From: an uncultured virus (IMG/VR IMGVR_UViG_3300046168_000051)
Lineage: Duplodnaviria > Heunggongvirae > Uroviricota > Caudoviricetes
Virus record (IMG/VR): IMGVR_UViG_3300046168_000051
Reading direction: 5' to 3' (one strand)
Length of the DNA stretch: 64,000 nucleotides
The notes below the pieces were generated by a model, which saw nothing but the letters and a program-made list of their open reading frames with translations, had not been told where the DNA came from and searched no databases. A program made the position numbers and the translations under genes. Numbering within the stretch: position 1 is the first letter of the stretch; each line of letters opens with the position of its first letter. Shown in pieces: positions 17,951-63,983 of this stretch.

Positions 17951-18679
17951 ATGGTTGCTAAGCGATTGCTCGATAATATCGGTCGCCGCCATACTGCAAT
18001 CATAGGTCAGACCCGCTCAGGCAAGACATACGCTACTAGGTTTATCCTTAAGAAGCTCCAACAGGAAGGAATCCATACAATCTTCTTCGACCCTAAGCAC
18101 GATGATGACTATGCCGACCTAGGAATAATCTGCTACTCCCCCATGCAGGTCTATGCAAAGTTACTCTCCAAGACTCCGAAGATTATCTATCGGCCTAACC
18201 CTGAGAAAAATAAGAGACAAGAAGAACTGACGCGTGTCATAAATCTCGCCTTCGAGGTATCGAAGACTAGAGGTTACAAGAGAATAAAGCGGGTATTCGC
18301 TATTGATGAAGTACAACTGATGGTAAAGAAGGGGGGTAACGATGGAATCGAAAGGCTTTGGACTGTTGGAGCTGGACAAGGGATATTGGGATTAGCAATT
18401 ACTCAGCGCATTCAGCTACTCAACGAAACAATTTGGTCGCAGTCAGAAAATAAAATTCTCTTCAAGGTCGAAGACCGACCGGAATACCTTCGTTCTCGTA
18501 ACCTAGACCATTATGCAGAACTACTCCCCTACTTTCAAGCTCCTGAAAACCGGTACTGGTTTTACGCCACCGTAGGAGATGGCGTGTGGAAAAAGCACCC
18601 CCCAGTGGGAGAAAAGAAAGAAAAGACCGGCAATCCCAATAACATGAGGCGACTACGCTTGTCTCGATGGCAGTCTTAA
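17951..18679 (+). CDS. FtsK/HerA-superfamily ATPase, probable A32-like genome-packaging ATPase
   Basis: Walker A GQTRSGKT, FFDPK, Walker B FAIDEVQ, AITQR motif; compact 242 aa as in packaging ATPases of tailless icosahedral viruses. Confidence 0.8.
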   Translation: MVAKRLLDNIGRRHTAIIGQTRSGKTYATRFILKKLQQEGIHTIFFDPKHDDDYADLGIICYSPMQVYAKLLSKTPKIIYRPNPEKNKRQEELTRVINLAFEVSKTRGYKRIKRVFAIDEVQLMVKKGGNDGIERLWTVGAGQGILGLAITQRIQLLNETIWSQSENKILFKVEDRPEYLRSRNLDHYAELLPYFQAPENRYWFYATVGDGVWKKHPPVGEKKEKTGNPNNMRRLRLSRWQS

Positions 18680-20860: not shown

Positions 20861-20909
20861 GACTTGCCGATTGCTTTATCATCGAATACCTGTTGGGTCA
20901 AGTGATACC

Positions 20910-22308: not shown

Positions 22309-22333
22309 GTCAGACCGAAGCTGATTGGTTTAC

Positions 22334-22513
22334 ATGGCAACCGTTACGGACCTACTAAACGAAATCAAAGAACAACTGAACGCACTTGACGCAGATGCTG
22401 CAAAAGTCGACAAAGGACAGAAAGCTGCTGGTACTCGCGTTCGAAACGGACTACAAGCAGTGAAGAAGTCTTGCGACTCCCTTCGTAAGCACATCCTTTC
22501 TCTTCGAGAGTGA
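22334..22513 (+). CDS. Hc1-like (histone H1-like) small protein
   Basis: DAAKVDKGQKAAGTRVRNGLQAVK matches the Hc1-family GNKAAGTRAR pattern as I recall it. Confidence 0.75.
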   Translation: MATVTDLLNEIKEQLNALDADAAKVDKGQKAAGTRVRNGLQAVKKSCDSLRKHILSLRE

Positions 22514-22698
22514 AGTCATTGGACACAGACCTCTATCGAGTGGTTCTAGGCGATAGCCTTAGAGATTTGACTTTCAAAGTCAATCACTTGATGGAAGAAG
22601 GATGGCAGCCACAAGGTGGCATTTACAAAGAAGGAAACCGCGACTATTACCAGGCCATGATTAGGCCACTAATAGTAAACCATGCCCTTGTAGTGTAG
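22510..22698 (+). CDS. DUF1737-like small protein
   Basis: Y-VV...VN-LMEEGWQPQGG...YYQAM. Confidence 0.7.
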   Translation: MKSLDTDLYRVVLGDSLRDLTFKVNHLMEEGWQPQGGIYKEGNRDYYQAMIRPLIVNHALVV

Positions 22699-22760
22699 TT
22701 TGGATATCACTTTGGCTTGCGGAGCCAATAACCCAGGTTCAAATCCTGGCAGGGGCGCCA
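22684..22760 (+). tRNA. tRNA-Arg (anticodon GCG) with encoded CCA
   Basis: Acceptor GCCCTTG/CAGGGGC; anticodon arm TTGGC-TTGCGGA-GCCAA; T arm CCAGG-TTCAAAT-CCTGG; discriminator G then CCA; no intron. Confidence 0.93.
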
Positions 22761-26426: not shown

Positions 26427-27809
26427 ATGAGTGACGAGCAGTACATTTACCTGGGTCAAGCACCCACTCGTGAAGTATCTCGTAAATCATCTATGGTTCG
26501 TGAAGATAAGCGCACTGTGACTATCCGTCAAGCTGGATTGCTTCTTACCTCCCAAGGTGATGCAAGTACACTTAGGTTAGTCGACCAGCGCGGTAAAGGA
26601 ACACTTCTTAGCGTGAAGGTTGTTACAGATAACCCATACATTCAGCTTCTAATGGAAATTGATGATTGGCGTAATGATGGGGAAACCCCAGCCGAGCTAC
26701 TCTATGGTGGAACCGGCAAACAAGACTACGGACTTTACGCTATGGATGGCGGCGACCCAGCAAAGGGCTACACAATGATGTACACCCCTATGGGTGGAGA
26801 AGCTTTCAATTCAAGGCTCCGTATTATTTTGCGTAACCGCTTACCAAAGACCAAGATTTACGGAAACAATGGTAACCAAACTATGCCGGGTGGACTACCG
26901 TTCCCAGTGAACAACGGACATTCCGGCGGCGCTAGTTTCTCAGCACCGCTTCTATCAGGTGCTACCAACGCACAACTGCTTGATGCTATGTCTCAACCAC
27001 ACTATGGAGATTTTTACGCCGCCCCGCGACTTAACCTATCTCTCTTAGGCAATATGAATGCAAAGCCAGGTATCGACCACCCATTTGTAGGACAAGCAGG
27101 TAAACCAATTCTATCAGGCGCTAGTACATCATTTCCTGGCGGTAATGCTGCTGATGAAAATACTTTCATATTCGGCCCACAAACAGTTGATGCAAATGGG
27201 GTAGCCTCGCAAATCATCTATGTTGCAAATAGAGGGTCTGATGCAGCTACTGAAAGCACGACTACTTTTGCGGCTGGAAAGTCGCTTTTCGTTCGCGATG
27301 GTGGAACTCTTCACTTCCCTGGAGAAATCAGCGAAGTTGCACTAAACACTGTTACTGTCGGTGGGGGTGCTTACAACAATGACCCTACTATTACGGTAAC
27401 CTCGACAGCTAAACTAACTGTCGGAATGTCTGTTTCCGGAAGTGGAATCCCAGCTTCTGCTACGGTAGCTTCTATAACAAACGCAACTACTTTCGAACTC
27501 AGTGCATCAACAACAGGCGGTAGCCAGACTGGCCAAACACTTACCTTCACCACACCAATACCAACTTCTGTTGGTGGTGCGTTTACACACGGCAATACAA
27601 GCACCAATCAACACAACGCGGTCTCCTTAACGGTTAGCCCAGGTATTTCTAACCCACCTACTATGGTGAATGTCCCAGCTACATCAATAGGAACCTCAGG
27701 GGCAATGACCAATGCAGGCTTTGTAACATCAGTTGCAGAAACAGACCCTAAGATTCTAATTAAGTCAATTGAAATCAAATACCGACTAGAGGTGAGCTAC
27801 GATGGCTAA
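26427..27809 (+). CDS. Putative penton/spike protein with inserted beta-repeat domain
   Basis: 460 aa, Thr/Ser/Gly-rich; LTVGMSVSGSGIPASATVASIT segment typical of virion surface proteins. Confidence 0.6.
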   Translation: MSDEQYIYLGQAPTREVSRKSSMVREDKRTVTIRQAGLLLTSQGDASTLRLVDQRGKGTLLSVKVVTDNPYIQLLMEIDDWRNDGETPAELLYGGTGKQDYGLYAMDGGDPAKGYTMMYTPMGGEAFNSRLRIILRNRLPKTKIYGNNGNQTMPGGLPFPVNNGHSGGASFSAPLLSGATNAQLLDAMSQPHYGDFYAAPRLNLSLLGNMNAKPGIDHPFVGQAGKPILSGASTSFPGGNAADENTFIFGPQTVDANGVASQIIYVANRGSDAATESTTTFAAGKSLFVRDGGTLHFPGEISEVALNTVTVGGGAYNNDPTITVTSTAKLTVGMSVSGSGIPASATVASITNATTFELSASTTGGSQTGQTLTFTTPIPTSVGGAFTHGNTSTNQHNAVSLTVSPGISNPPTMVNVPATSIGTSGAMTNAGFVTSVAETDPKILIKSIEIKYRLEVSYDG

Positions 27810-34661: not shown

Positions 34662-36212
34662 ATGACAGTCACGGACGCGACGCAACAAACCTCTCAAACT
34701 GCACTCTCAATGAACATTGAACACGCACAGGTCGTAGCAAATACGGTGCGTAGTACGCTTGGCCCAAAGGGTCTTGACAAGATGCTTACTGACGCTGGCG
34801 GGCGAGTTACCATTACTAACGATGGGGCTACTATCCTCCGCAATGTAAACTGGGTTTCGCCAATCGCAAAGAAAATTGTCGAAGTAGCCAGGACACAGGA
34901 AGAACAGTGCTATGACGGGACTACAACTGCTATTATTCTAACCGCCGAGCTTCTAAAGAAAGCACAGCTATTGCTCGAAAGCGGGGTTCACCCGACCACT
35001 ATTGTTGAGGGCTATCGCAACGCATCTTTGAAAGGTAAGGAGTTACTTACCAAAATGACAGTCGACCCAAATGAAGAGAGGCTACTTTCGATTGCAAAGA
35101 CGGCTATGACTGGTAAAAGTGCTGAAGGAGAGCGAGACCATCTAGCTCGATTGTGCCTCGAAGTCATCGAAGCATCGCGTCCTGAAGCAGTCCATATCAT
35201 GACCCGAACCGGTTCTCCAATCTCCGAATCCTTTTCACCGAATGGAATTGTCGTAGGCCGACAGAAAATCCATTCCGCTATGGACACTGAATTGACACAT
35301 GTCAAAGTTGCACTCATTGACGGTGGTCTCGAACTGGAAGGATTTGGCCAGGGAGTTAACCTCAACCTTCAATCCTATGGGGAGTCTGTTGAGTACCAAA
35401 AGGGTCGCAAAGAAGCCTTGAAGACTATGGCAGACCACTTAATCAGCCTAGGTGCAAACCTAGTACTCGTCACTAAGAACATCGACCCATGGATTGCAGA
35501 ATACCTAGCTCGTAACAATGTCGTTGCTTCCCGACGCTGTGCCGCTTCGAATTTAGAAGCAGTGGCTCAGGCTACTAACGGTCTTATTGTCTCCGGGCAC
35601 GAAGACCTTGAAGAGAACGACTTGGGAGTAGCAGGGCGAATGGAAGAAATCCTCCAAGAAGGCCAACCTCCATTCATGCTCTTGCACGATACACCTAACG
35701 ATGATGCTTCTTCCCTGGTTATCTGTGCCCCTACCGAGGAAGTCGCAAATGAGATTCGTCGGGCAATGGACGACGCTATGGGAGTAGTATGGGTTGCTAA
35801 GAATAGTAAGAAGATTGTTCCTGGTGGTGGAGCTCCTCAAGTAGCTATGGCCAACTCCCTGCGCGCACACGCCGCTTCAGTGGGAGGCCGTGAATCTCTA
35901 GCAGTCTCCGCATTCGCAGAAGCCCTAGAAATTGTTCCCCGTACTCTAGCTGAAAATGCTGGACTATCACCTATTGACACCCTGATGGACCTTCGTAAGG
36001 CCCATAGTAGCTCGGATGGAAAGACTTCTAGTATGAGTTATGGGCTCAATGTATATAGCGGAGAAGTTGTTGATATGCTATCTGAGGGCGTAATCGAGCC
36101 CGAAAAGGTTGTTAGGCAAGCTATGGAGTCTGCTACGGAAACAGCAGTAATGGTTTTGCGTATTGACGATATTATTAGTGCCAAAGAACCTGAAATCGAA
36201 GACATGATGTGA
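34662..36212 (+). CDS. ths: Group II chaperonin (thermosome subunit)
   Basis: RSTLGPKGLDKML, TNDGATIL, DGTTTA, VPGGGA, PRTLAENAG, VLRIDDII. Confidence 0.95.
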   Translation: MTVTDATQQTSQTALSMNIEHAQVVANTVRSTLGPKGLDKMLTDAGGRVTITNDGATILRNVNWVSPIAKKIVEVARTQEEQCYDGTTTAIILTAELLKKAQLLLESGVHPTTIVEGYRNASLKGKELLTKMTVDPNEERLLSIAKTAMTGKSAEGERDHLARLCLEVIEASRPEAVHIMTRTGSPISESFSPNGIVVGRQKIHSAMDTELTHVKVALIDGGLELEGFGQGVNLNLQSYGESVEYQKGRKEALKTMADHLISLGANLVLVTKNIDPWIAEYLARNNVVASRRCAASNLEAVAQATNGLIVSGHEDLEENDLGVAGRMEEILQEGQPPFMLLHDTPNDDASSLVICAPTEEVANEIRRAMDDAMGVVWVAKNSKKIVPGGGAPQVAMANSLRAHAASVGGRESLAVSAFAEALEIVPRTLAENAGLSPIDTLMDLRKAHSSSDGKTSSMSYGLNVYSGEVVDMLSEGVIEPEKVVRQAMESATETAVMVLRIDDIISAKEPEIEDMM

Positions 36213-46372: not shown

Positions 46373-46583
46373 TTAGCTCACTCACCGCTAGTCGATATCC
46401 AAGTCCGCTCAGGCTTTTGATTTCCTTTGCAAACAAAGCAAGGTCTTTCTTAGTGTTGAATGAAATCGTTGAAATGATTTCATCCTTTGCATCAATGATG
46501 TGTAGTAGCTTCTTCGCCATAATTCTCAACCTTTCCAGGTTCAGGCAGACTATAAAGGTACCCTTTTTATTGGTTTTTCGCAA
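46365..46583 (-). CDS. Hypothetical protein (start uncertain)
   Basis: Fills the gap in a coupled minus-strand operon. Confidence 0.45.
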   Translation of the reverse strand: MRKTNKKGTFIVCLNLERLRIMAKKLLHIIDAKDEIISTISFNTKKDLALFAKEIKSLSGLGYRLAVSELNV

Positions 46584-47040
46584 TCCTATCGACTAAAACG
46601 GTCTTAGTACCTTCCGAGTCAAGGCCCATCATATCGCACAAATCAATTAGCTCGTCTTTCTTCATTCTTCGGAGCTGGTTAACAGTAGTGTAACCTATTT
46701 GAGTTTCAACAGTAGCTTCTTCTTCAAGGGCAATCTCTTTCTCGACTTCTTCGATATGGTCAAGGTCATGGCCATGGTTAGGGTCAATGTTTTTTGGCTC
46801 TTCGGCGTATTCAAATTCCTCAGCTTCTTCGAGAGTTTCCTCAACAGGTGTTTCCTCTTCTGCATAGTCAAAGACAGGCTCTTTCAGCGAGGAAGTCATG
46901 ATAGGGTCGTCAGATGGGAATGCCATCTCCTCAAGGATATCCAGGAGCTTCACATCGAACCACATTTCCCTAATAATGAAAAGGGTAAAGAGCACAACAA
47001 GAGCGAGGTAAAATTCTCCTTGTTCAAGCAAGTTTCTCAC
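46567..47040 (-). CDS. TM + acidic linker + C-terminal SAP/HeH-like domain protein
   Basis: LRRMKKDELIDLCDMMGLDSEGTKTVLVDRI. Confidence 0.7.
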   Translation of the reverse strand: MRNLLEQGEFYLALVVLFTLFIIREMWFDVKLLDILEEMAFPSDDPIMTSSLKEPVFDYAEEETPVEETLEEAEEFEYAEEPKNIDPNHGHDLDHIEEVEKEIALEEEATVETQIGYTTVNQLRRMKKDELIDLCDMMGLDSEGTKTVLVDRIAKNQ

Positions 47041-48335: not shown

Positions 48336-48635
48336 TTATTCTTCTTCCCATAAAGTGCCCACGGCCCTGTAAGTGGATGAAGGATAGCGCTTGTTTATGC
48401 CCTTTACACTCTCTTGAGACACCTTTTCGACATATCCTTCGCGTACAAGACGCTTCAAAGCTCCTGCAATAGTTTGAGTCGAAACCTTCCATCGCTCGTA
48501 AGACCAATGAGCCTTTCTTACTCGTGGAATAAGAGACCTAGCGGTAAAGGTCTCAGTTCCTAACTTACTAACTACTCCCTTTACTACTCTATACCGCCTA
48601 GCTCGGCGCTCGATAAGCCATTGGGGGTCAGGCAT
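48336..48635 (-). CDS. Winged-helix-like DNA-binding protein
   Basis: STQTIAGALKRLVREGYVEK...STYR. Confidence 0.6.
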   Translation of the reverse strand: MPDPQWLIERRARRYRVVKGVVSKLGTETFTARSLIPRVRKAHWSYERWKVSTQTIAGALKRLVREGYVEKVSQESVKGINKRYPSSTYRAVGTLWEEE

Positions 48636-49015
48636 TACAATTCACCTGAGTCTTTTAGAAATTGAAGGAGACTTAGTCCCCCATCTATGTCTTTCTTCTT
48701 TAGTGAAGCCCTATCGGCATTCTTTTTCCCAGGCATTGGTCGATAGTAGTCGCTATCATTCTGCCTCCAAGCCTTAATCCCACAGGCATTACACAAGTGA
48801 AACTTTTTCCATCGTCGCCATTGGGGAGATTCACTCGTGGCGCAGAAGTTACAGTTAGTCTTTGGCATGCGTTGTGCGCAATTATCGCATATCGTTTTTG
48901 AACTCCCTCCATGCTTACCTGTTGGGTACATACTACAAGGCTCCCCACAACGATTACAGAATACGGCCTTACGCGGAGTGGAATACATATTCCCATTCTT
49001 TCCTTTGCGTGGCAT
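48635..49015 (-). CDS. Double zinc-finger protein with GATA-type finger
   Basis: CNRC...CDNC, then CNFCATSESPQWRRWKKFHLCNACG. Confidence 0.75.
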   Translation of the reverse strand: MPRKGKNGNMYSTPRKAVFCNRCGEPCSMYPTGKHGGSSKTICDNCAQRMPKTNCNFCATSESPQWRRWKKFHLCNACGIKAWRQNDSDYYRPMPGKKNADRASLKKKDIDGGLSLLQFLKDSGEL

Positions 49016-50975: not shown

Positions 50976-51899
50976 ATGGAAACCCCCCATTACAGGGAGA
51001 AAATCGCCATTATTGGGCGCACAAGCACTCTCAAGCAGGAGAAGGGGCTTGAATCACAGCTTCTTTCGCTCGACTATGCCCTTGATGCCGGGCTTTACTC
51101 GGAATACGACCTAATCGCCCCTCCACCACTCGGAAAGGATGGAGAACGAGAAGGTACCTTTTGGGAAAGGTACCCTTCCATTGAGGATAAGGATTTGAAA
51201 ACCATGTTTGGTCATGGGGGCAAGGCTTGGTGTGTCGAGGATGTTTCAGGTTCAGTATTTCACAAGCACCCAATGTACCTCGCATGTTTAGACTTCTGTC
51301 GAGAAGAAGGAATCCCTAACATTCTCTTTGAACACTCCGACCGTCATTCTCGTGATACAGAAATGCTACTGTCAGAAATCCGCCAACGAAAAGCTGAGGG
51401 TATTTACTTTCACTACCTTAACTTCGGCGGTATGGATTTGTCCACCCCTGCGGGGAGGATGATGCTTACTATGGGAGCCGCCTTTGCGGAGTACTATCGT
51501 AATGACTTGAAATCAAAGACTATCCGTGGTATGAAGAACCTTGAAGATAAGGGTATTTGGGCTGGCTCTCCACCTTACGGTATGCGTGTTATCACTCAAA
51601 AGGAAGACAAAGAAAACTACGGTAAGCTACTTTACAACCCAGCAGAAATGCGATTCATCCTCGCTCTCTATGACCGTATTCTTCAGCGACCAGGAGTCTC
51701 ATATCGACAGCTTGCTAAGTGGGCTAATGAAGATGGTTGGCATACAAGGCGAGGAAAAAACTGGACTGCTATGGGTGTTCGTCGCATAATGACTTTCATG
51801 CTACCATGGAAGGGAGCCAATGATGATGATGAGAACTGCGGCAAGTACTTCCTAAAAGAAATGAAAGAGAATCCGAACCTAGACGGAGATAACTCTTAA
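50976..51899 (+). CDS. Serine recombinase (resolvase catalytic domain + recombinase DNA-binding domain)
   Basis: IIGRTST--Q, EDVSG, DRHSR, DLSTPAGR, AFAEY, G-PPYG, TRRGKNW. Confidence 0.85.
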   Translation: METPHYREKIAIIGRTSTLKQEKGLESQLLSLDYALDAGLYSEYDLIAPPPLGKDGEREGTFWERYPSIEDKDLKTMFGHGGKAWCVEDVSGSVFHKHPMYLACLDFCREEGIPNILFEHSDRHSRDTEMLLSEIRQRKAEGIYFHYLNFGGMDLSTPAGRMMLTMGAAFAEYYRNDLKSKTIRGMKNLEDKGIWAGSPPYGMRVITQKEDKENYGKLLYNPAEMRFILALYDRILQRPGVSYRQLAKWANEDGWHTRRGKNWTAMGVRRIMTFMLPWKGANDDDENCGKYFLKEMKENPNLDGDNS

Positions 51900-54914: not shown

Positions 54915-55346
54915 GTGCGGGGGCGTCATCGAATGACCTTGGACCGATTAGATTCTGTTGTTATTGGCAACAGGTGCGAAGTTGATGGGTGCGAGTGCGT
55001 AGCTGTTGCTAAGCAAAACCGTTGCTACGACCATAGTGTTGACCGCTTAATTGAAGCACTCTTTGTCAATGAAGAGTGCAAGTTTGGTGGCGTAAACTGT
55101 GAAGGAAACGCTAGCCGCGTTAACGAACATGATGTTCTAATGTGTGAAAATTGCCACAATGCTTACCAACGCATTCAGCGAGGGCGAGGGGCCTTTGCAA
55201 GGTTCTTACCGACCATGTTCATGGAACCTCAAGTAGTGAGACAAAACCCCCCAGGGACCACCTATGACGGTGGCTCTTACCACAGGAATATCAATTGGGA
55301 AGCGCTGATTGAAAGTGCGCGAGAAGAAGGAGAGGAAACAGAATGA
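54915..55346 (+). CDS. Cys-rich protein
   Basis: CEVDGC...C--H, C----C...CENCH; ATGA overlap with polB. Confidence 0.6.
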   Translation: MRGRHRMTLDRLDSVVIGNRCEVDGCECVAVAKQNRCYDHSVDRLIEALFVNEECKFGGVNCEGNASRVNEHDVLMCENCHNAYQRIQRGRGAFARFLPTMFMEPQVVRQNPPGTTYDGGSYHRNINWEALIESAREEGEETE

Positions 55347-58084
55347 CGAACATAGCAATTTGTGAGCAAACCCCTGGATATCAGGGGCGAATGAGAGATG
55401 GAAGCCGAGTAGCGGTTAGGACAAGAGACAAAGACGGCAACCGTAAGGTCGACTTCTATGATGTTCCCGCTGAATGTTATGTTGACTTGAACAACTTCGC
55501 TGAGCGTTATACATGGGATGGGCAGAAGAGAGTTAAGTGCAATCCTGCAAAGGTTGTCTTTGACCCTGTTGATTTCCTTACTCAAGACTGGCGAAAAGAC
55601 AGGTCAGGTATAATTTCTGTCGAACCTAAGTCTGCGAAGACCATTGACAAGAGGCCACTTGCCCGTGTTACTTTCAATTCCCGTTCTGACTTGCGTAGCT
55701 TCCTTCGGGACTTCACTCCTGTTTATGGTGCTGACTTGGCGCAAGAGGATATTTGCGCTATCAGGTATGAAACAGGAAATGAAGACTTCGAGTCTCACAA
55801 GTGCTACTTCGATATTGAAGCCGTTCAATTCAAGAGAGATGACCCACTAAAGGCTGAGTGGTTAGTCGATTGGAAGAAAGAGATTTGGCATGACCAGCAG
55901 ATGGTTAACTCCATTGTTGCTTACGATAACTGGCTAGACACTTACTTTGTCTTTGCTTGCCACCCCACCTGGGATGAAGAAGTAACCAGTGCTCAAGACG
56001 GTGATAGGACTATCATCGAAAAGAAGCACAAGACTGAGAAGGCTATGCTTACTTCTTTTGCTGAGTGGTTTTACAAGTCCGACTTCGATGTAGTCACTGG
56101 CTGGAACAGTGCTGGATATGATATGTCTGTTCTTTACCACCGTATGGAGTCTCATCGTGTGCCTCACTGCATGAACGGTGTTCACTTTGAGAACGGAATC
56201 ATGCCTCGTGAAGTCTATGGTGGCGGGGCTATGTCCCCTTACGGTATCATGGATGAACCATTTCACAAGGGTGGCCGTGAGTACCTATGGCAACAACAAC
56301 CACTACGAGGAGTCGACCATTTGGATATGATGGTGGCGTTCAAGCGTCTTTACAAAGACTCCACTAACAACGAATTGGTTTCTGCTCGCTTAGGTCGTGT
56401 TGCTCAATTCCTTGGGCTACGCGACGGTAAGTTAGAGTCACCTGACTTTTACTCAAAGGACTACCACATCGGGTGGGAACAGTTCCGAAACTACAACATT
56501 CGGGATGTTGAATTGCTAGTGCAGATTGACGATGCATGGAATGTAATTGGGTCGTATAAGACTGTTCAACAGCTAATCGGTTGCCAGCTTCGCTCGACTT
56601 TCTATGCTACTGGGCTTGCGAAGGTTATGTTCAATGAAGAGGCAGACTGGAAGCAACGCACTTACCCATACGAACATGAGTTTGCAAACGACGACGACGA
56701 CCTTGAAGGTGCTATTGTTCTTGACCCAGTTGAATTGGATTCAGTCGGGCTACATGACTGGACTGTCATTCTTGATTTCGCTGGGTTGTACCCTTCTATT
56801 ATGTGCGCTTACAATACATGCCACTCTTCTAAGGTGCGACCAGGAATGCCTCACCTAGATGATGATATGATTGGGCATAAGGGTGTTCGTTTCCGTAAGA
56901 ATCCTGTTGGTGTCCTTCCTAAAATGGTCCTTCGCCTTGACGAACAACGCGACGAATACAAAGCAAAGCTGAAAGAAGCAGAAGCCGCTGGTGATAAGAA
57001 CGCCGCTCGTAAGTGGAACGCTATGCAGCTTTCAGTCAAAAGAATGCGCGCCAGTTTCTATGGGATTATGGCTTTTCCTAAGTTCTCATGGTATGACCCG
57101 GACATTGCTAAGACAATTACTATGGGTGGTCGCAATGCACTACTCTCTATCAAGGCTAAAGCCGAAGAAGCAGGGTTCAAGGTAGTATTCGGACACACTG
57201 ATTCTATCTTCGTTACTATGCCTAAGGAATGGACTCAAGAGAAAGTTTACGATGAATCCATCGCTCTTGCTAAAGTCCTCACTGACCATGTTCAAGCCGA
57301 CCTTCGTACTGACAAAGTAGTAGTCGAGTTAGAGGCTATCATGGACAAGTATTTCATTGCTAAGAAGAACCGCTACGCTGGTCGTAAGGCATGGGACGAC
57401 AAGAAGGGGTTCCTTAACCTCGACTTCTCCGAAGATGGTTGGCCGGAGGTTTCAAGGAAAATGTCCGGTATGGAAGCTAAGCAAACAAACACTGCCCCTA
57501 TTGGTCGTAACATTCAGTTGCAAACGCTTGGTCGTATCTTCAATGATGAATCACCACGACAAATCCAAGAGAGTATCAAAACGCTAGTAAGCGAAGTCCG
57601 TAATGGTGATGTTGAAGACTCTCAGTTAGTCGCTAATGCTAAGCTCAACAAGTGGCTCCCTCACCATCAAGACTGGCACTGGGGCTATCCTAAGCACTGT
57701 GACTGTGGCGAATGCCCTGCACCAAAGGTCGGAGCCGAAAGGGATGATGACGATGCTTGCTATGCAAAGAAGTTTTGGTCTGCTACGGCAGCACTGTTCC
57801 ACAATGATGTTCTTGCTGACGAGTCGAAGGGCTTTTTGCTACTCGATAAAGGAGACTCTTTCAGTTGGACTCATGTGTGTGATGGTCCGACTTCAATACC
57901 AAAGGATGGCTGGGTTGGTTTCTATGAGTTGGAGCAAATTGCTGACTACACCCTTGATTACGCCCTCTTAGCGGAGAAGCATGTAATCAAGAAGGTTGAG
58001 AACATTTACTACGGTATGGGCTGGGATATTGACGCACTATACGAAAAGAAGAGTTACTCGTTGGATGCTTTCTTGTCCACATAA
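55343..58084 (+). CDS. polB: Family B DNA polymerase
   Basis: Exonuclease FDIE, GWNSAGYD, YNIRD; polymerase DFAGLYPS, K----SFYG, FGHTDS, KKNRY. Confidence 0.95.
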   Translation: MTNIAICEQTPGYQGRMRDGSRVAVRTRDKDGNRKVDFYDVPAECYVDLNNFAERYTWDGQKRVKCNPAKVVFDPVDFLTQDWRKDRSGIISVEPKSAKTIDKRPLARVTFNSRSDLRSFLRDFTPVYGADLAQEDICAIRYETGNEDFESHKCYFDIEAVQFKRDDPLKAEWLVDWKKEIWHDQQMVNSIVAYDNWLDTYFVFACHPTWDEEVTSAQDGDRTIIEKKHKTEKAMLTSFAEWFYKSDFDVVTGWNSAGYDMSVLYHRMESHRVPHCMNGVHFENGIMPREVYGGGAMSPYGIMDEPFHKGGREYLWQQQPLRGVDHLDMMVAFKRLYKDSTNNELVSARLGRVAQFLGLRDGKLESPDFYSKDYHIGWEQFRNYNIRDVELLVQIDDAWNVIGSYKTVQQLIGCQLRSTFYATGLAKVMFNEEADWKQRTYPYEHEFANDDDDLEGAIVLDPVELDSVGLHDWTVILDFAGLYPSIMCAYNTCHSSKVRPGMPHLDDDMIGHKGVRFRKNPVGVLPKMVLRLDEQRDEYKAKLKEAEAAGDKNAARKWNAMQLSVKRMRASFYGIMAFPKFSWYDPDIAKTITMGGRNALLSIKAKAEEAGFKVVFGHTDSIFVTMPKEWTQEKVYDESIALAKVLTDHVQADLRTDKVVVELEAIMDKYFIAKKNRYAGRKAWDDKKGFLNLDFSEDGWPEVSRKMSGMEAKQTNTAPIGRNIQLQTLGRIFNDESPRQIQESIKTLVSEVRNGDVEDSQLVANAKLNKWLPHHQDWHWGYPKHCDCGECPAPKVGAERDDDDACYAKKFWSATAALFHNDVLADESKGFLLLDKGDSFSWTHVCDGPTSIPKDGWVGFYELEQIADYTLDYALLAEKHVIKKVENIYYGMGWDIDALYEKKSYSLDAFLST

Positions 58085-61000
58085 CGCTTCCCTATTTCTA
58101 GGTCAATCCCGACAGTAATGGCTTCAACCATCCCGTCAAGCAGGTCCACTGTACCCATGATTGGGTGCGCTCGTAGTGACTTTCCTGGGTCTTCCCCACC
58201 GATTCCTCCTAAGAGAGAAATTGAGTTAGCGACCATGTGCCCGCTTTTACCTAATCCCGACAGGTAGCCTGTGCTTCCCATGTTGTCGATTAGCGCATCA
58301 ATGTACCGCAAGTCCAGCTCTCCTAAGCCGTTATCACTGTTCATCTGATTGTTGAATATCTCTTTGATACAAGAAAGTGCAGCTTCCAAACCATACTCGT
58401 GTGCAACCCAAAATGGGTCATTACAAACAGTGAGGTATTCATCATAGTACTCACCTATTAGGTCGTAAGCATTTTCCATCATTGGGTTGGTTCTTCCTGG
58501 GGCTGGTTTAGCTGGGCCTTTGACAAATACGCACCAACGCTTATCTCCACCGTTAGGGTGAGTAGTAAAGTCTGAGAAAGCACGACCTCCGTTAATCAAT
58601 CCGTTTACCTGATACTTACCTAGTGACTCCTTCAGTACTAAGAGGTAGGAGTCTATGTCTAAGCTCTCCGGTACTCCTTCAGTCCTTACTCTCAATCCAC
58701 CCTCTATTTCATTGACATAAAACTTAGGCCTTTCGTTCCCGCCTTTGAAATCTAGGTACTTGTAAATGAAGCCCAAGTCTAGGTCAAAGGTTTCGACTAC
58801 CTTGGAGTCATAGATAATATCGATTCCTCTTTCCTCAGGGAGGTATCTGAAAACCTTGACAATGTCGTCAAGCAAAAGAGTTGAGCAGAAATTAGCTAAC
58901 TTCTTTGCGGTCTCTTCATTGTTGTATTCATCTTTCAAGAAAAACCTGGTAGCTGGTTGCTTAATTTCCGAGCGGGACAAATCCAGTACCTGTACGATTC
59001 TATCCGTAGTAGGAGTAGTACCCTTTCCCCCACCGTGGAATGCGCGCAAACCAGCTTGCGTAACCGGTTCTCCGACATTCGCGGCACCAGTTGAACCAAT
59101 CATCTCTCCTGGTCGCGCCTTATTCTCAATGTAATAGTCGTAAGCGCGACCAAAGTAAGCTACTGGGTCTTCGATTTCTCTCGCTTCCTTTTCGAGGTCA
59201 ATTTTTTCTGTCAATTTTGACAGAATATTTTTCGGTAATCGTCCCGCCTTTCCTCTCAAAGTGTATGTTGTACCTCTTTGACATGTGTCACAAGGGTCAA
59301 GTAGCGGAATACCATGTTTACACAGCTGTGAAATGAAGTGAGACTGAAGTGAAAGTGAAAGTCCATTTGGATTATCAGGACCTCGCGCATGGAATGGTTG
59401 AAGCCCATCTTCACCAACTTGTAATGACAAAACCTTGCCCAATCGCATGTTAACTAAGTAACCTCTATCGTCTATCATTAGATTTTCCGATGCGCGCTTT
59501 AGCCGGTGTGAAAGATAACCGGACTTTTGAATCGCGCCCATAGATGATTCCATAGTTGACCGGCGGCCAGCGGCGGAAGCCAGAAAATAATTTTCAGGAG
59601 ACAAACCTTCGGAATAGGCCTGCTTTGCGAAACCAAAGGCGTTCCCCGAATAGTCGGGCGGGTTATCGGTGTATATTGGCTCAAACTCAGGGTCGGCTTG
59701 TTGTTCATAGGAACCACTAACAGACCGACCTCCTGAGAAGTGTGACAATAGTCTGCCCACTTTTATTCCACTCATCAATCTGCTACCACCTATGGTTACC
59801 TGCCCATAAGCTCCTGACATTTGCTGAATATTCAAATTACCAGCACGAGCTCCTGAAACCACTGCTATGTTCATTTGGTTAGCAGTTCCTTGTAGCTCTT
59901 TAGTTAGTGAGATAATTTTCTTGTCGAAATCCCTAGTAATTTTTGCTACCGTTAATTCCATCCACCCTTGGGGGTCGTAAGTGAGCCAGTGACGAGAGTT
60001 TTCTTTGAAGTAATCATCAGGAAGCTCCTCTAGCGTTTTAGTGAAGAACGCCTCGGTTACAACTCGGATTTTCTCATTGGCTATGTCGTAAAGCTCCTGG
60101 ATTTTCTTTTTGCTTTCGTTGTACCGTTCAAAGCCTGCGGCCTTACCTTCTCTAACTAAGGCCTCGTGGGCTCCTGCGCTGATTACTTCTCCAGTTTCCT
60201 TGTGACGATAAGCGAAATTGGACTCAAATGAAATATCTTCAATACCAATAGTATACCCTACATACAAGTGTGCGGCAAAGAATAGACGGTTAATGTGGTC
60301 AATAAATTCCGCTAGCTTTCTAATTCCTAACTCATAGTTGAAGTGATAGACAAATGCTGCCCCTAAAACCATTGAACCGTTTTTTACTCCCCTTGCATCC
60401 AGTGTACCATGGAGTAGTTTACCATCACGAATAGAAACTGGTTGCCCTGTTGAGTCTTCCCAATCGCAGTTGATTCCTTCAGGGATAAAGTGAGAAACTA
60501 CTGCTTTACCAGTGTAATATATACTCTTGAAGTCAGGTTCGGGTAATGTGTCCATGTACTTGAGATTCCCTTCATCATCCCTAGTGTAAACAAGACTCAT
60601 CATCTGAATGAGTGCTTTCTTAGTGAAGTAGACATGACCGTCTTTATCGTAGCCTATTCGTCCATCGAATGTACCATGCGGTCCTTTGAATTTCTTTCTC
60701 TTATCTTCGTCTAACTTTTGATAGGCGTTGTAAGTAATGGTAATGTCGTTACCATCTTCGTCCTTTCCTTTGTAGGTTAGTTTAGACTTATTCGGGAATG
60801 TAAGCAAGTAAGCACCTGATGTTTCATCTTGGTCAGAAGCAATAGTAGGTCTGCCGTAGCGAGAGTGAATAATTTGCTTGTTAACATCTAGAATGTCTTT
60901 AGCTTCTTGAATTGCTTCTTCTGATTGAGGTACGAAGCAGCGCATAGCGTCACCGTCATAATCAGCGTTGAATGGGACACAAATAGTCGGGTTAAAGGAA

Positions 61001-63279
61001 AATGCCTTCTGCTTCATTGGTATGACTTTGCCTGCCATGACATTTTGACGATGGAGGGCTGGGGCACGGGTAAAGAGGATGGTGTCATTCTTTCTTAGAG
61101 AGCGATGAACTATGTCTCCAGGAACCAAGCGTTCTGCCTGTTCGCGGCGAATGTTAGAGGCAAATTCGTAGCGGTACTCTCTTCGTGCCCGCTTTATCTC
61201 TTCTTCCATGCCGTCTTTGTCTTCCTGGTCGTAATACTTCGCAGTTATCCCTCTTAGAATCTCTCGATACCAAACAGTCTGAGCATCCGGAAACTTTTGC
61301 TTACCCATATCATCAAGAGCAAACGGGTCTTGTGGGCCGTTAAGTTCTCCTTCCAAATTAACGCGAGACTTACTATTTGGCCTAAGCTTCTGAATGTACT
61401 TGGCCCCGCCAATATGGTTTCCTTCGTCATCTTTTGGATAATAGGTATCTATGTCCCATTGGTCTAGTGCGCCTATTCCCTTCTTTTCAGGAGGATAACC
61501 CCTGATTACTGCTTCTCTTAGGTCCTCGATATTTTCCTTAGTCACTCTTACAGCTACTGTCATGCGAATACAAGCACCGATAGGTACTCCTACTTCATCT
61601 AACCTTAATGCCGGATTAGGAGTGATTACCGAATACATGGTATGTTCTGTTACCTTAGACTGGTTAATTGCCCTAATGTGATTCTTCTTTTTGCCAGGTG
61701 GCTTGATTCTATCATACACTCCCTCTAATGACGCGTTTACGGCACCATCTCCTCCAAACTTCTGACTCATAGCTGGAGTGCCAAACGGAGTCTGTGTGCT
61801 AAGAGCCTGAGTGCATGCTTTGAACAACATAGACTCGCTTCTGTCAAACTGGCTTCTGTCATTTTGCATATCGAATAGCTTTTGGTTTGCCTTTACTACA
61901 TTGATGTATAGCTTGTTGAGGTCATTCATTTCCAACGCACCTGATGGGGTCTCCTGTGGTGGTCGGATATTGTTTGGTGCAATGGGGAACCTTCTCCAAA
62001 AAAGATAGCCGGGGTGAGAGCGTGGCTCGCCTGTGCTTGGGTTTAGTTCCGTGTTGAACCCCATTGCGAGTGCTTGGTCATTTGGAACTTGGTCAAGCGA
62101 GTCGGCTACAACACCATAGCGTACAGGTGGGTTTCTTGGGAATTCATCTTTAGGTCGGTCACCAGGTCTAGGGAAGAATTCGGCTGTTCTTCCCATACCA
62201 AACTTCATTCTAAACATGAGGATAGGCGATTTTTCATTGCAACGAGGGCAGTGGTTGACCTTAGTGCTAAGCGGAGTTGGTACTGGCCCGCCCTGTGAAA
62301 GCTGATAGGGGCCCAAGTTTTTCTTCCCCTCCTTGTAGTAAGCATTGTAAGAATCATTGAGCGCCTTCCAAATAAGAGCAAAGCCATCAGGGCTGGTAAA
62401 CTTGTTTTCGTACATTATCTTCTTTGCATTTGCGATTAGTGGGTCTAGGTACTCATCGGGGAGAACAATTTCATGACAACTACGGCAGGTGTACTTTAGT
62501 GTCTTTACTAGCGGCGAAGAGTCAATATTGCCACTAAGATACAGGTAGTTAGGAACTGGTACTACTAAGTTGATTCTGCCGAAGTGGCCAGGACAGGAAT
62601 CGGCCTTGAATCTATTCTCGTTACCAGTATGTCCGCAGGTAAAGCAGGCATCGTTGTTGTAAGTGCCTAGCCGAAGGTCAGCAACCCCGCCGTGAATAGG
62701 CCGAGGAACTGCGGCAATAGCAGTCTTGCTTTGTCTTGGCGTTTCGTAAACTTCCGCGTGTCGTATTACTCGGTCACCACTTAGTAGTTCTATTTCCCTC
62801 GGTCCCATCATCCCGTGGTAAATAGCTCCTACTTGCTTTGTGATTTCGTGGAGTGTATGGTCAACTTTTGGTACAAGATTGAACTCGGCAGACACTGGCC
62901 CCTCTAAGACATATCCGTCGTAATCAGTTTCTATTTCTATCCGGGCGGAGGCATCGAATAGTTCGGTGTAAAGCCAATCATCGGGCTTTGGCTCTTCGTT
63001 TAGGTACCGCCGAGTATTCTCATACGGGGTGTTTGTAACTTTGCATATTGTAATTAGCCCACTTTTAGCTCTCACCGCAGCTGCGTTTGGAGAATACATG
63101 TACCAGCGATAGGCTTCTGCTAAGGTTGCGGGCACCCATCTGATTGTGTCGATTTCTATGAGTCCCTTTGTTTTGCCATTAGCATCTACTAGTATCTCTT
63201 CTTCGGTAAAGAACCAATAGAACCCGCTATCTAGTGGGTTTTCTATTTCGAGTTCTGGCTGTGGCCCCTGAATTACCAT
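58054..63279 (-). CDS. rpo1: Multisubunit RNA polymerase largest subunit (Rpo1/Rpb1-like, A' and A'' fused)
   Basis: DLRLG, C--C...CPGHFG, SVITP, RAPALHR, NADYDGD, QD--SGAYLLT, bridge helix SGYLSHRL, GEMIG...GEPVTQ---AFH trigger loop. Confidence 0.95.
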   Translation of the reverse strand: MVIQGPQPELEIENPLDSGFYWFFTEEEILVDANGKTKGLIEIDTIRWVPATLAEAYRWYMYSPNAAAVRAKSGLITICKVTNTPYENTRRYLNEEPKPDDWLYTELFDASARIEIETDYDGYVLEGPVSAEFNLVPKVDHTLHEITKQVGAIYHGMMGPREIELLSGDRVIRHAEVYETPRQSKTAIAAVPRPIHGGVADLRLGTYNNDACFTCGHTGNENRFKADSCPGHFGRINLVVPVPNYLYLSGNIDSSPLVKTLKYTCRSCHEIVLPDEYLDPLIANAKKIMYENKFTSPDGFALIWKALNDSYNAYYKEGKKNLGPYQLSQGGPVPTPLSTKVNHCPRCNEKSPILMFRMKFGMGRTAEFFPRPGDRPKDEFPRNPPVRYGVVADSLDQVPNDQALAMGFNTELNPSTGEPRSHPGYLFWRRFPIAPNNIRPPQETPSGALEMNDLNKLYINVVKANQKLFDMQNDRSQFDRSESMLFKACTQALSTQTPFGTPAMSQKFGGDGAVNASLEGVYDRIKPPGKKKNHIRAINQSKVTEHTMYSVITPNPALRLDEVGVPIGACIRMTVAVRVTKENIEDLREAVIRGYPPEKKGIGALDQWDIDTYYPKDDEGNHIGGAKYIQKLRPNSKSRVNLEGELNGPQDPFALDDMGKQKFPDAQTVWYREILRGITAKYYDQEDKDGMEEEIKRARREYRYEFASNIRREQAERLVPGDIVHRSLRKNDTILFTRAPALHRQNVMAGKVIPMKQKAFSFNPTICVPFNADYDGDAMRCFVPQSEEAIQEAKDILDVNKQIIHSRYGRPTIASDQDETSGAYLLTFPNKSKLTYKGKDEDGNDITITYNAYQKLDEDKRKKFKGPHGTFDGRIGYDKDGHVYFTKKALIQMMSLVYTRDDEGNLKYMDTLPEPDFKSIYYTGKAVVSHFIPEGINCDWEDSTGQPVSIRDGKLLHGTLDARGVKNGSMVLGAAFVYHFNYELGIRKLAEFIDHINRLFFAAHLYVGYTIGIEDISFESNFAYRHKETGEVISAGAHEALVREGKAAGFERYNESKKKIQELYDIANEKIRVVTEAFFTKTLEELPDDYFKENSRHWLTYDPQGWMELTVAKITRDFDKKIISLTKELQGTANQMNIAVVSGARAGNLNIQQMSGAYGQVTIGGSRLMSGIKVGRLLSHFSGGRSVSGSYEQQADPEFEPIYTDNPPDYSGNAFGFAKQAYSEGLSPENYFLASAAGRRSTMESSMGAIQKSGYLSHRLKRASENLMIDDRGYLVNMRLGKVLSLQVGEDGLQPFHARGPDNPNGLSLSLQSHFISQLCKHGIPLLDPCDTCQRGTTYTLRGKAGRLPKNILSKLTEKIDLEKEAREIEDPVAYFGRAYDYYIENKARPGEMIGSTGAANVGEPVTQAGLRAFHGGGKGTTPTTDRIVQVLDLSRSEIKQPATRFFLKDEYNNEETAKKLANFCSTLLLDDIVKVFRYLPEERGIDIIYDSKVVETFDLDLGFIYKYLDFKGGNERPKFYVNEIEGGLRVRTEGVPESLDIDSYLLVLKESLGKYQVNGLINGGRAFSDFTTHPNGGDKRWCVFVKGPAKPAPGRTNPMMENAYDLIGEYYDEYLTVCNDPFWVAHEYGLEAALSCIKEIFNNQMNSDNGLGELDLRYIDALIDNMGSTGYLSGLGKSGHMVANSISLLGGIGGEDPGKSLRAHPIMGTVDLLDGMVEAITVGIDLEIGKRYVDKKASNE

Positions 63280-63280
63280 G

Positions 63281-63718
63281 TCATCCTCTCGCTGCGGTAT
63301 ATGCTAGCCAATCGGCCATCTCGTTAAGTTCTGTACCCATGTGCGCTTTGACCCATTGATACTGGTGGACTCCCCGTAATGAATCTTCTAGCTTCCTTAT
63401 GCGCTTAATGATTTTGACCAGGTCGGGTTGTCTGATATTGTAGTTGTCGGAAAGACCCTCAACTACCATTTTAGAGTCGCTGATAATTGTAATGTGAATA
63501 CTTGGCCCTAATTTTCGAGCGATTAAATCCTCTAAAGCAAGTTCAACTGCTACAAATTCGGCCATGTTGTTGGTAGTAACCCCGATATATTCACCATGTA
63601 GGTGAATTATCTTCCCGGTGTCCTTGTCAAGTATGACATAGCCTGAACCGCATTCACCTTTACTATCGGTGTCGCGGTCTTTGATACAGCTACCGTCAGT
63701 CCACACTTCGTATTCCAT
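63281..63718 (-). CDS. rnhA: Ribonuclease HI
   Basis: WTDGSC, TNNMAE, SDSKMV, WVKAH, NEMAD; ATG 63718. Confidence 0.9.
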   Translation of the reverse strand: MEYEVWTDGSCIKDRDTDSKGECGSGYVILDKDTGKIIHLHGEYIGVTTNNMAEFVAVELALEDLIARKLGPSIHITIISDSKMVVEGLSDNYNIRQPDLVKIIKRIRKLEDSLRGVHQYQWVKAHMGTELNEMADWLAYTAARG

Positions 63719-63719
63719 A

Positions 63720-63983
63720 TCAAACACCCTTGACAACACGATACTTTACCTTAGTGCGGGTAGCGGGGTCGTCGCCATCACCATCGTTGAAGCGGCTTCT
63801 AACGACTTCTATCTTTATTACGGAATTAATGGGAGTTTCTTCTCCTTTCATTCTTAAGTGCTTAAGAGCAGCGTCTTCATACATTAGGGAGGGGAGCTCC
63901 TCTATCTTGATGGAGAGAGACTTTAGAACCGCTTCTGCATCAAGCGGAGAAAGAACTGTGTGTTCCGGCATTAAGTAGTGCAT
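63720..63983 (-). CDS. rpoH: RNA polymerase subunit RpoH/Rpo5 (may extend beyond the window)
   Basis: HYLMPEH-VL, ELPSL--ED, VIKI--R, YRVV; frame is open to the window edge. Confidence 0.85.
   Translation of the reverse strand: MHYLMPEHTVLSPLDAEAVLKSLSIKIEELPSLMYEDAALKHLRMKGEETPINSVIKIEVVRSRFNDGDGDDPATRTKVKYRVVKGV

Follow-up and report, generated by a model that had tools for sequence, protein, structure and literature searches.

A widespread marine archaeal virus-like family encodes half of an RNA polymerase core

What could a virus-like element do with half of a cellular-type RNA polymerase core? A 64,000-nucleotide stretch of DNA from an uncultured virus (IMG/VR record IMGVR_UViG_3300046168_000051), here called the window, raised this question through its gene rpo1, which encoded a largest subunit with the archaeal A' and A'' parts fused in one chain, and through rpoH, which encoded a homologue of archaeal subunit H (Table 1). 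An earlier note, drawn from the sequence alone, had taken the two for part of the virus's own multisubunit polymerase and the element for a transcriptionally autonomous archaeal virus. That autonomy found no support: Rpo2, the second large subunit, whose absence from the genome the note itself had given as a refutation, was detected neither in the window nor in two relatives, one complete (140 kb) and one 79% complete, nor in other loci of the family. Half of a polymerase core in a widespread, virus-like archaeal family is unusual all the same. Our best explanation of the window is a marine, virus-like element associated with Poseidoniales (Marine Group II archaea), with a genome of ~134 kb of which the window covers about half; the thermosome gene of the window sat on a contig of 133,848 bp. 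We propose, at slightly less than even odds, that this abundant marine archaeal virus family captures transcription by swapping a core subunit, its Rpo1 forming a chimeric virus-host polymerase with the host Rpo2.

The largest subunit and the search for its partner

Rpo1 possessed Pfam Rpb1 domains 1-5 in canonical order (E 6e-20, 5e-32, 3e-14, 2e-7 and 8e-21), all above gathering scores. It matched the NCBIfam models of archaeal A' (E 3e-103, 346.5 bits) and A'' (E 3e-21, 75.9 bits) far under their equivalog cut-offs (819 and 420.65, respectively), and is thus a fused but very divergent homologue and not an equivalog. The best PDB sequence matches were archaeal Rpo1N/A' (4qiw_A, E 1e-58), then Pol II (5.5e-46), Pol III, Pol I (6e-28) and bacterial beta' (~1e-22). 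RpoH was of the short archaeal form, scoring above the Pfam cut-off and, against NCBIfam subunit H, below it (E 2e-9, 37 bits; cut-off 83); Rpb5_C also adjoined rpo1 in the relatives G001 and G002 (E about 5e-13, 46 bits). The archaeal type claimed by the earlier note agrees with the best PDB and NCBIfam matches of Rpo1 and with the form of RpoH, and the Pfam matches to Rpb5_C and DNA_pol_B bear out its placing of an RpoH/Rpb5 C-domain protein and a family B DNA polymerase (PolB) near rpo1. Pfam domains and translation likewise upheld what it had read in the 1741-aa chain, namely fused A' and A'', an N-terminal extension, the motifs NADYDGD and GEPVTQAGLRAFH, and no GKRV; QSKV stood in the place of this cellular motif at residue 540.

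Rpo1 was collinear with A' and A'' of an archaeal metagenome-assembled genome (MAG; G003) of Poseidoniales type, at 24-26% identity overall and 45% at the catalytic core, and its trigger-loop-like GEPVTQAGLRAFH aligned with GEPGTQMTMRTFH in that A''. Further features, which we take to be zinc motifs (CxxC...CxxH at 212-232, CxxC at 265 and 344), a bridge helix (GRRSTMES...SGY, with GRRSTMES at residue 1238) and the trigger-loop His (H1415), were invariant in 23 aligned members of the family spanning 27-89% identity. So were the N, A, D, D, G and D of NADxDGD, and E1404, P1405, Q1408, L1411, R1412 and F1414 of the trigger-loop-like motif. Among family open reading frames (ORFs) the catalytic motif read NADYDGD in 83 and NADFDGD in 7. 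Invariance of catalytic, zinc, bridge-helix and trigger-loop residues across such divergent members indicates purifying selection for catalysis, and the protein appears, from its sequence, to be a catalytically complete, very divergent, archaeal-type largest subunit.

The N-terminal extension is real, since likeness to archaeal A' started only at about residue 145-150. As a domain it was specific to the family (Table 1). It gave no Foldseek match at E <=0.001, a best VIA-align Z of 5.1 and ESM Atlas scores of <=0.80 only, and no catalytic motif was identified in it. Most of 50 weak VIA-align rows (Z 2.2-4.6) were proteins of the ADP-ribosyltransferase fold (Arr, DarT, ParT, RES and Tpt1-like), which we regard as a lead only. 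Within the linker between the A'-like and A''-like parts lay a family-invariant CxH(x7)CxxC motif, CKHGIPLLDPCDTC (residues 1320-1333; 59281-59322, minus strand), for which BLAST against the A' and A'' of the archaeal MAG aligned no counterpart. Long insertions occurred at the same site, between clamp core and active-site domain, in the viral Rpo1 (~595-720) and in the Poseidoniales-type A' (L279, MAG G003:C1, 9877-12981; 1034 aa, usually ~880). The two inserts had no detectable sequence similarity.

This architecture belongs to one marine family. Some 50 clusters of fused Rpo1 (1560-1731 aa; 27-89% identical to that of the window) came up among 5.8 billion protein clusters searched, many of them on contigs of 110-138 kb, and the next matches were eukaryotic Rpb1/RPA1 at E about 1e-33. 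A pattern scan of JGI/ENA metagenome contigs yielded 315 relatives. Five IMG/VR contigs belonged to the family (Rpo1 29-34% identical), the other matches there being giant-virus bins at ~24% identity. Among the IMG/VR relatives, G002 comprised 140,336 bp with direct terminal repeats (CheckV 100%; Rpo1 29% identical) and G001 110,123 bp (CheckV 79%; Rpo1 34% identical); relatives at >=70% identity to the window were metagenome loci with 10-kb flanks only, and scanning viral contigs with a single protein yielded none. G002 and the window shared a gene order of HAD phosphatase, three giant ORFs, ATPase, capsid-like pair, thermosome, nuclease, recombinase, PolB and rpo1. Where sources held >=1.2 kb upstream of rpo1, an rpoH-like ORF lay within 2.5 kb on the same strand in 73/74 (a few being one record counted twice), the exception being L056. 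DNA nearly identical to 55343-63983 was found in runs from 14 studies.

The assembly was sound at position 58054, where the earlier note had asked for continuity to be confirmed. PolB converged on rpo1 with a 31-nt overlap, this junction recurred in four relatives (L019, L005, G001 and G002), and contigs from two other data sets spanned it (X17 record 12, X18 record 18). With the junction kept in relatives and bridged by independent contigs, a chimera at 58054 is ruled out.

Rpo2 was sought at the levels of domain, profile and motif. Six-frame searching of G001 and G002 with PF00562 gave no match, against matches in 14/14 control genomes. By Pfam, no Rpb2 domain was present in 53 window ORFs or in 111 of the 117 G002 ORFs of >=110 aa; of the six left out at slice borders, four stayed unscanned, one was rpo1 and one (1439 aa), scanned later, belonged to no family. 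Hidden Markov models (HMMs) of archaeal B'' and B', built from 14 archaeal loci, were run against 12,850 stop-to-stop ORFs, drawn from 1.5 Mb of sequence that comprised the window, G001, G002 and 87 loci of the family. Their best E values were 1.3 and 0.84, in the same ORF set in which the A' and A'' models, as positive controls, gave 114 hits (to 1e-143) and 82 hits (to 6e-37). The GDK...GQKG signature, the most conserved motif of Rpo2, was present in 14/14 archaeal B' and in 0 of the 12,850 family ORFs. None of the four longest ORFs of the window (1121, 1165, 962 and 2298 aa) aligned to the B' profile in hhalign at a probability above 0.5%. As to the initiation factors and small subunits that the earlier note suggested seeking beyond the window, G001 and G002 contained no TBP, TFIIB or Rpb6, other small subunits not having been searched for. 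No polymerase subunit or basal factor was found among 29 small window ORFs scanned, nor in the 10 kb past the end of the window in L019 and L005, two relatives at 70% identity. With no Rpo2 found despite strong positive controls, and no TBP, TFIIB or Rpb6 in G001 or G002, autonomous transcription is unsupported.

A complete virus-encoded polymerase might nevertheless exist if its second subunit and others had diverged beyond recognition or lay in an unseen part of the genome, and some observations would suit it. Rpo1 itself has diverged far (346 bits, cut-off 819) and has a long stem in the tree described below, many conserved ORFs of 800-2300 aa have no family, and jumbo-phage polymerases are barely recognisable by sequence. 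We consider such an enzyme unlikely, however, given that searches reaching A' at 1e-143 stopped at E ~1 for B'/B'', that the signature motif was missing throughout and the four largest window ORFs were profile-negative, and that G002, complete with terminal repeats, had no Rpo2, subunit H being the sole companion of Rpo1 found.

Table 1. Positions of the principal features in the window, with the support for each
Feature	Position	Strand	Product or residues	Support
FtsK/HerA-type P-loop ATPase, candidate genome-packaging enzyme	17951..18679	+		Pfam DUF87, AAA_22; PHROG 2666 'terminase large subunit' E 1e-17
tRNA-Arg(GCG)	22684..22760	+		ARAGORN and Rfam
Candidate jelly-roll capsid protein	26427..27809	+	460 aa	AlphaFold2 (AF2) model, all-beta, mean predicted local distance difference test (pLDDT) score 75.7
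Thermosome-type chaperonin	34662..36212	+	516 aa	Pfam Cpn60_TCP1 E 2e-135
Serine recombinase ('resolvase')	50976..51899	+		Pfam Resolvase E 2e-16
Family B DNA polymerase (PolB)	55343..58084	+	913 aa	Pfam DNA_pol_B E 3e-34; PHROG 262 E 8e-95
rpo1, fused A'+A'' largest RNA polymerase subunit	58054..63279	-	1741 aa	Pfam Rpb1 domains 1-5
Trigger-loop-like motif GEPVTQAGLRAFH	59035..59073	-	Rpo1 residues 1403-1415	Translation
Catalytic metal-binding motif NADYDGD	60949..60969	-	Rpo1 residues 771-777	Translation
Family-specific N-terminal domain of Rpo1	62845..63279	-	Rpo1 residues 1-145	Kept in 24/24 aligned members; AF2 pLDDT 82.4
RNase H, between rpoH and rpo1	63281..63739	-	152 aa	Pfam RNase_H E 2e-17; PHROG 531 E 1e-26
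rpoH, Rpb5 C-domain / archaeal subunit H homologue	63720..63983	-	87 aa	Pfam Rpb5_C E 1e-9, 38.5 bits, cut-off 23.5

Origin of the subunit and host of the element

In a tree of the A' region (91 rows, 842 columns, LG+C20 PMSF, quick search) the Rpo1 family formed a single clade (SH-aLRT 100) on a long stem (0.8), placed outside a clade (SH-aLRT 97) of all sampled archaea, eukaryotes and giant viruses. Its position beside the bacterial outgroup may reflect long-branch attraction. Approximately unbiased (AU) tests on a reduced set of 40 rows (LG+G4) rejected a joint clade with Rpb1 of giant viruses, the nucleocytoplasmic large DNA viruses (NCLDV), at a log-likelihood difference (delta lnL) of 69 and p 0.00013. 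The viral rpo1 is thus not of the NCLDV kind, and the specific tie to NCLDV polymerases that had been raised from the sequence falls away. Neither a grouping with all archaea (AU p 0.10) nor one with the putative host order (AU p 0.094) was rejected, so that, as far as sequence comparison goes, the data allow an archaeal origin of rpo1 and speak neither for nor against a recent capture from the host.

Evidence on the host came mainly from the thermosome and the tRNA. The nearest archaeon-labelled homologues of the window thermosome were from Poseidoniaceae, Thermoplasmata or Thermoplasmatota (42-45% identity). A closer cluster (54%) was labelled as a Halieaceae bacterium (P0144) and is probably another mis-binned viral contig. 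One 36-kb contig of the family (73% identity) lay within the archaeal MAG G003, whose order is very likely Poseidoniales because its genomes carry thermosomes 77-90% identical to a Poseidoniaceae-labelled protein; the viral-type Rpo1 was present in 1/151 genomes of this order. The same MAG had a second thermosome (G003:C12:4056-5588), which shared only 45% identity with the Poseidoniaceae type and probably lies on another contig of the viral family. The window tRNA-Arg(GCG) matched 141/151 genomes of the order, at 77-85% identity among the matches listed, which is the outcome of the host check by tRNA proposed in the earlier note. Another family contig (L175; 100,964 bp, 31% identity) lay within a Flavobacteriales-labelled MAG, and in the order of that MAG the tRNA matched 2/41 genomes, one match being the family's own contig at 91%. 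We regard the bacterial labels (Flavobacteriales, Halieaceae) on family contigs and thermosomes as most likely binning errors in public MAGs. In the family member G004:C22 the tRNA-Arg(GCG) was 91% identical and Rpo1 31% identical, so the tRNA is far more conserved than the proteins.

The archaeal MAG offered a further comparison. Its own operon ran Rpo2 - A' - A'', with A' and A'' as a split pair of 1034 + 526 aa, and an ORF of 208 aa ahead of it matched the viral RpoH weakly and locally. The viral cassette rpoH - RNase H - rpo1 resembles this operon minus rpoB. Together, the thermosome and tRNA-Arg similarities point to a host among Poseidoniales, as judged by sequence, and the host is probably an archaeon. 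The claim of an archaeal virus holds to the extent that the element looks viral and archaea-linked.

Several features would fit instead a small relative of eukaryotic giant viruses, or another protist virus, with NCLDV-kind polymerase subunits. Rpo1 is fused as in eukaryotes, and domains of eukaryotic-chromatin type occurred in what is probably an archaeal virus: a GATA-type zinc finger (48635-49015, minus strand) and SAP (46567-47040, minus strand) in the window, and SWIB in G002 (66290-66667). Fragments at >=99% identity appeared in oligo-dT RNA libraries, and enrichment in the cellular size fraction is reported in the accessible text of Xu et al. (PMC10160649). A eukaryotic host is nonetheless very improbable in our assessment. 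It conflicts with the rejected NCLDV clade, with an 87-aa RpoH that lacks the N-terminal domain of eukaryotic Rpb5, and with prokaryote-style gene packing, in which 27/56 same-strand neighbours overlapped. Genes of prokaryotic type also speak against it (RusA in G002, the serine recombinase, a Chlamydia-type Hc1 and a ribbon-helix-helix protein), as do the thermosome and tRNA that point to Poseidoniales.

A proposed use of the subunits and the nature of their carrier

A multisubunit polymerase needs two double-psi beta-barrels, one contributed by each large subunit, and subunit H is a direct structural neighbour of the largest subunit in cellular enzymes. A chimeric enzyme is the simplest reading of an element in which the catalytic features of one barrel are strongly constrained and no gene for the other is detectable. 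During infection, the viral Rpo1 and RpoH would replace host A'/A'' and H and assemble with the host Rpo2 and small subunits, and the altered clamp, jaw and N-terminal surfaces might then redirect transcription to genes of the element or give insensitivity to host control. Such replacement of host subunits within a chimeric polymerase seems to us an even bet. Were the viral proteins to work with host subunits, they would offer a handle on the assembly of archaeal polymerase and on the stepwise build-up of complete viral polymerases such as those of giant viruses.

The genes next to rpo1 invite a different use, outside general transcription. RNase H, which the earlier note did not list, lay between rpoH and rpo1, with an equal position in the relative L019 and a place near rpo1 in G002. 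In the window and relatives this gene and the convergent PolB could fit a role of Rpo1/RpoH in making and processing RNA primers or R-loops to begin replication, and the lack of viral initiation factors (TBP, TFIIB) in G001 and G002 would suit either that role or a decoy that sequesters host subunits and turns off transcription in the host. Both are improbable, in our judgement somewhat more so than a complete viral enzyme: a pure decoy has no need of invariant catalytic, bridge-helix and trigger-loop residues, and priming would still require a second catalytic subunit. Priming is disfavoured also because G002, with two primase-like genes and an MCM helicase, has a conventional route to it.

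Other points weigh against a chimeric polymerase in a virus of Poseidoniales. That the viral Rpo1 binds host subunits is inferred, and the compatibility of the interfaces is uncertain, as Rpo1 is just 24-26% identical to the Poseidoniales-type A'/A'' and scores about half of what giant-virus Rpb1 does on the archaeal A' model. For the ~70 kb of the element's own genome outside the window, the absence of Rpo2 is deduced from the gene order kept with complete but distant relatives (Rpo1 29-34% identical), and a partner may have diverged past HMM, motif and profile detection among the many large ORFs that have no known family. The host link is indirect, with one family contig in a Flavobacteriales-labelled MAG, a thermosome labelled Halieaceae, and the viral-type gene in just 1/151 genomes of the archaeal order. 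Signs of expression are slight as well. In one study, short contigs on PolB, rpo1 and RNase H/rpoH numbered 21 and 7 in two oligo-dT RNA libraries (18 and 6 of them at >=99% identity), and two metatranscriptomes of a second study contained relatives at 90-95%. As such contigs may stem from carried-over DNA, they are a weak hint of transcription and no proof of it, and oligo-dT priming of the first two libraries adds to this caution.

Upstream regions were also scanned for promoter-like motifs. TATA-like hexamers showed no positional peak in 119 upstream regions. A motif defined post hoc, CCTTTAT[AC], preceded 5 genes of the window at 24-56 nt, where 0.9 would be expected, with no enrichment in G001 or G002. 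The related post-hoc form YCCTT[TA]AT[AC] occurred 24-43 nt upstream of four genes (19555, 22301 and 34629 on the plus strand; 47451 on the minus strand), among them the thermosome and Hc1-like genes, and was likewise unenriched in G001 and G002.

Whatever the use of its polymerase genes, the carrier may be a virion-forming element. The all-beta model of a 460-aa protein found its best structural match in a chain of Sulfolobus polyhedral virus 1 (SPV1; 6oj0_Z) at Z 10.0, with a root-mean-square deviation of 3.4 over 138 aa, and Foldseek paired the two with probability 1.0 and E 2.6e-3. Further Z scores were 8.1 and 7.1 for GH172 enzymes, 6.3-6.4 for several non-viral beta-sandwich proteins, 6.3 for HHIV-2 and 5.4 for PRD1, so the SPV1 chain was the sole viral row at Z >=8, from one model of one protein. 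The protein had ~330 relatives in a library of 1.8 billion proteins, and its ESM Atlas look-up gave scores of <=0.80 only. Its 330-aa neighbour, considered as a second capsid protein, was rejected, having no profile similarity to the 460-aa family (hhalign probability 0.7%). Near the capsid-like genes lay the FtsK/HerA-type ATPase, with a syntenic copy in G002 and weak HerA/DUF87 matches only in a PDB sequence search. The earlier note had called it A32-like, which stands at the level of the FtsK/HerA superfamily (DUF87/AAA_22, PHROG 2666) and not more narrowly, no Pox_A32 match being listed.

These two proteins, the fibre- and appendage-like proteins described below and the terminal repeats of G002 suggest, on the strength of a single structural model, that the element is a large non-tailed virus. 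That its carrier might instead be a plasmid-like or megaplasmid element of Poseidoniales is a matter separate from the polymerase mechanism. PHROG and Pfam scans of the window and G002 found no HK97 capsid, portal or terminase, and group D of the magroviruses, which the element resembles, is described as having no morphogenetic block found (PMC5434244), as lacking structural genes and enriched in the cellular fraction (PMC10160649) and as MCP-lacking (PMC11706807). We nevertheless hold a plasmid to be improbable, in view of the match of the 460-aa model to an SPV1 virion chain and to HHIV-2 and PRD1, the ATPase of a packaging kind, the tail-fibre-like and pre-neck-appendage-like proteins, and the direct terminal repeats of G002.

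Other genes of the window included possible host-recognition fibres or spikes, one with a Peptidase_G2 intramolecular-chaperone domain of pre-neck-appendage-like type (32612-34318, plus strand) and one of a phage tail-fibre family (20871-21641, plus strand). A 62-aa ORF (22325-22513, plus strand) matched the Chlamydia-type histone H1-like Hc1 (Pfam PF07432, E 5e-15) and may condense DNA. A 1165-aa ORF (7070-10567, plus strand) had a KxDG nucleotidyltransferase region matching an NHEJ (nonhomologous end joining) DNA ligase domain (NCBIfam E 3.5e-8), as well as a stretch weakly resembling PriS. By its sequence it looks like a LigD-style primase-polymerase/ligase fusion, unlike a capping enzyme, and a PDB sequence search of it gave no match. 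The giant 2298-aa ORF next to it (10542-17438, plus strand) contained guanylate kinase and glutaredoxin domains, and its syntenic 2208-aa counterpart in G002 (131318-137944) contained guanylate kinase, Ham1 and DUF5824.

Comparison with known systems

The gene set of the window, with PolB, thermosome, resolvase, RNA polymerase A and no HK97-type block found, fits magrovirus group D, a match made through the published description only. In the available text of Philosof et al. 2017 (PMC5434244), a 'DNA-dependent RNA polymerase A' is listed in one sentence among the group D genes, so the presence of the gene is already in print and ours is no first sighting. The same text describes the group as having neither a closed genome nor a morphogenetic block and leaves its nature undecided. 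Xu et al. 2023 (PMC10160649), as far as accessible, found group D to lack structural genes and to be enriched in the cellular fraction and suggested a plasmid-like element; the accessible part of Prabhu et al. 2025 (PMC11706807) speaks of 'MCP-lacking group D' and leaves RNA polymerase unmentioned. In the magrovirus literature as far as available, no statement on the polymerase gene was found beyond PMC5434244, and the accessible text of a survey of double jelly-roll (DJR) viruses (PMC5894146) does not mention this group. The element shares with group D, as described there, a marine setting, a link to Marine Group II archaea and the lack of detected head-tail morphogenetic genes. To that description we add that A' and A'' are fused, that rpo1 comes with rpoH and without a detectable Rpo2, that a relative of 140 kb is complete and has terminal repeats, and that a candidate jelly-roll capsid protein accompanies the FtsK/HerA ATPase. 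This bears on the nature of group D, since the large non-tailed virus suggested here is at odds with both a tailed magrovirus and a plasmid. Archaeal viruses are stated in a review (PMC5569661) to encode no RNA polymerase of their own; here, in contrast, a whole marine family carries the largest subunit and subunit H. The literature searched, which did not extend to subscription journals or preprint supplements, contained no account of an archaeal virus that encodes a polymerase subunit.

The element may share a jelly-roll capsid protein with SPV1, HHIV-2 and STIV, non-tailed icosahedral viruses of archaea, its 460-aa protein best matching an SPV1 virion chain (more weakly HHIV-2, PRD1 and STIV); an FtsK/HerA-type ATPase is present. 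It differs in a genome of ~134-140 kb, several times larger than theirs, and in having a single capsid-like protein modelled. Compared with archaeal Rpo1 (A'/A'') and Rpo5 (H), the viral proteins keep the domain order, catalytic motif, zinc motifs, bridge helix, trigger loop and short form of H, and the gene order recalls the archaeal rpoH-rpoB-rpoA operon with rpoB missing. The viral Rpo1 differs in its single fused chain, 145-aa N-terminal domain, many inserts and invariant CxH...CxxC motif.

Nucleocytoviricota and mirusviruses carry both large polymerase subunits. The element resembles them in bearing a cellular-type, one-chain largest subunit and an Rpb5 homologue, and differs in lacking a detectable Rpb2, in the rejection of an NCLDV Rpb1 clade and in a host that is probably an archaeon. 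In known cases, phages take over host RNA polymerase by swapping initiation factors or modifying subunits, as with sigma factors, T4 Alt/ModA and AsiA. Replacement of a catalytic core subunit by a virus has, to our knowledge, no described case, and none was found in the literature searched on archaeal viruses and RNA polymerase, so that capture of transcription by a core-subunit swap would, if true, be a strategy undescribed for any virus. As in the phage cases, the host enzyme would be re-tooled and no full viral enzyme brought in, and the family would then represent a natural intermediate between host-dependent viruses and carriers of a complete polymerase.

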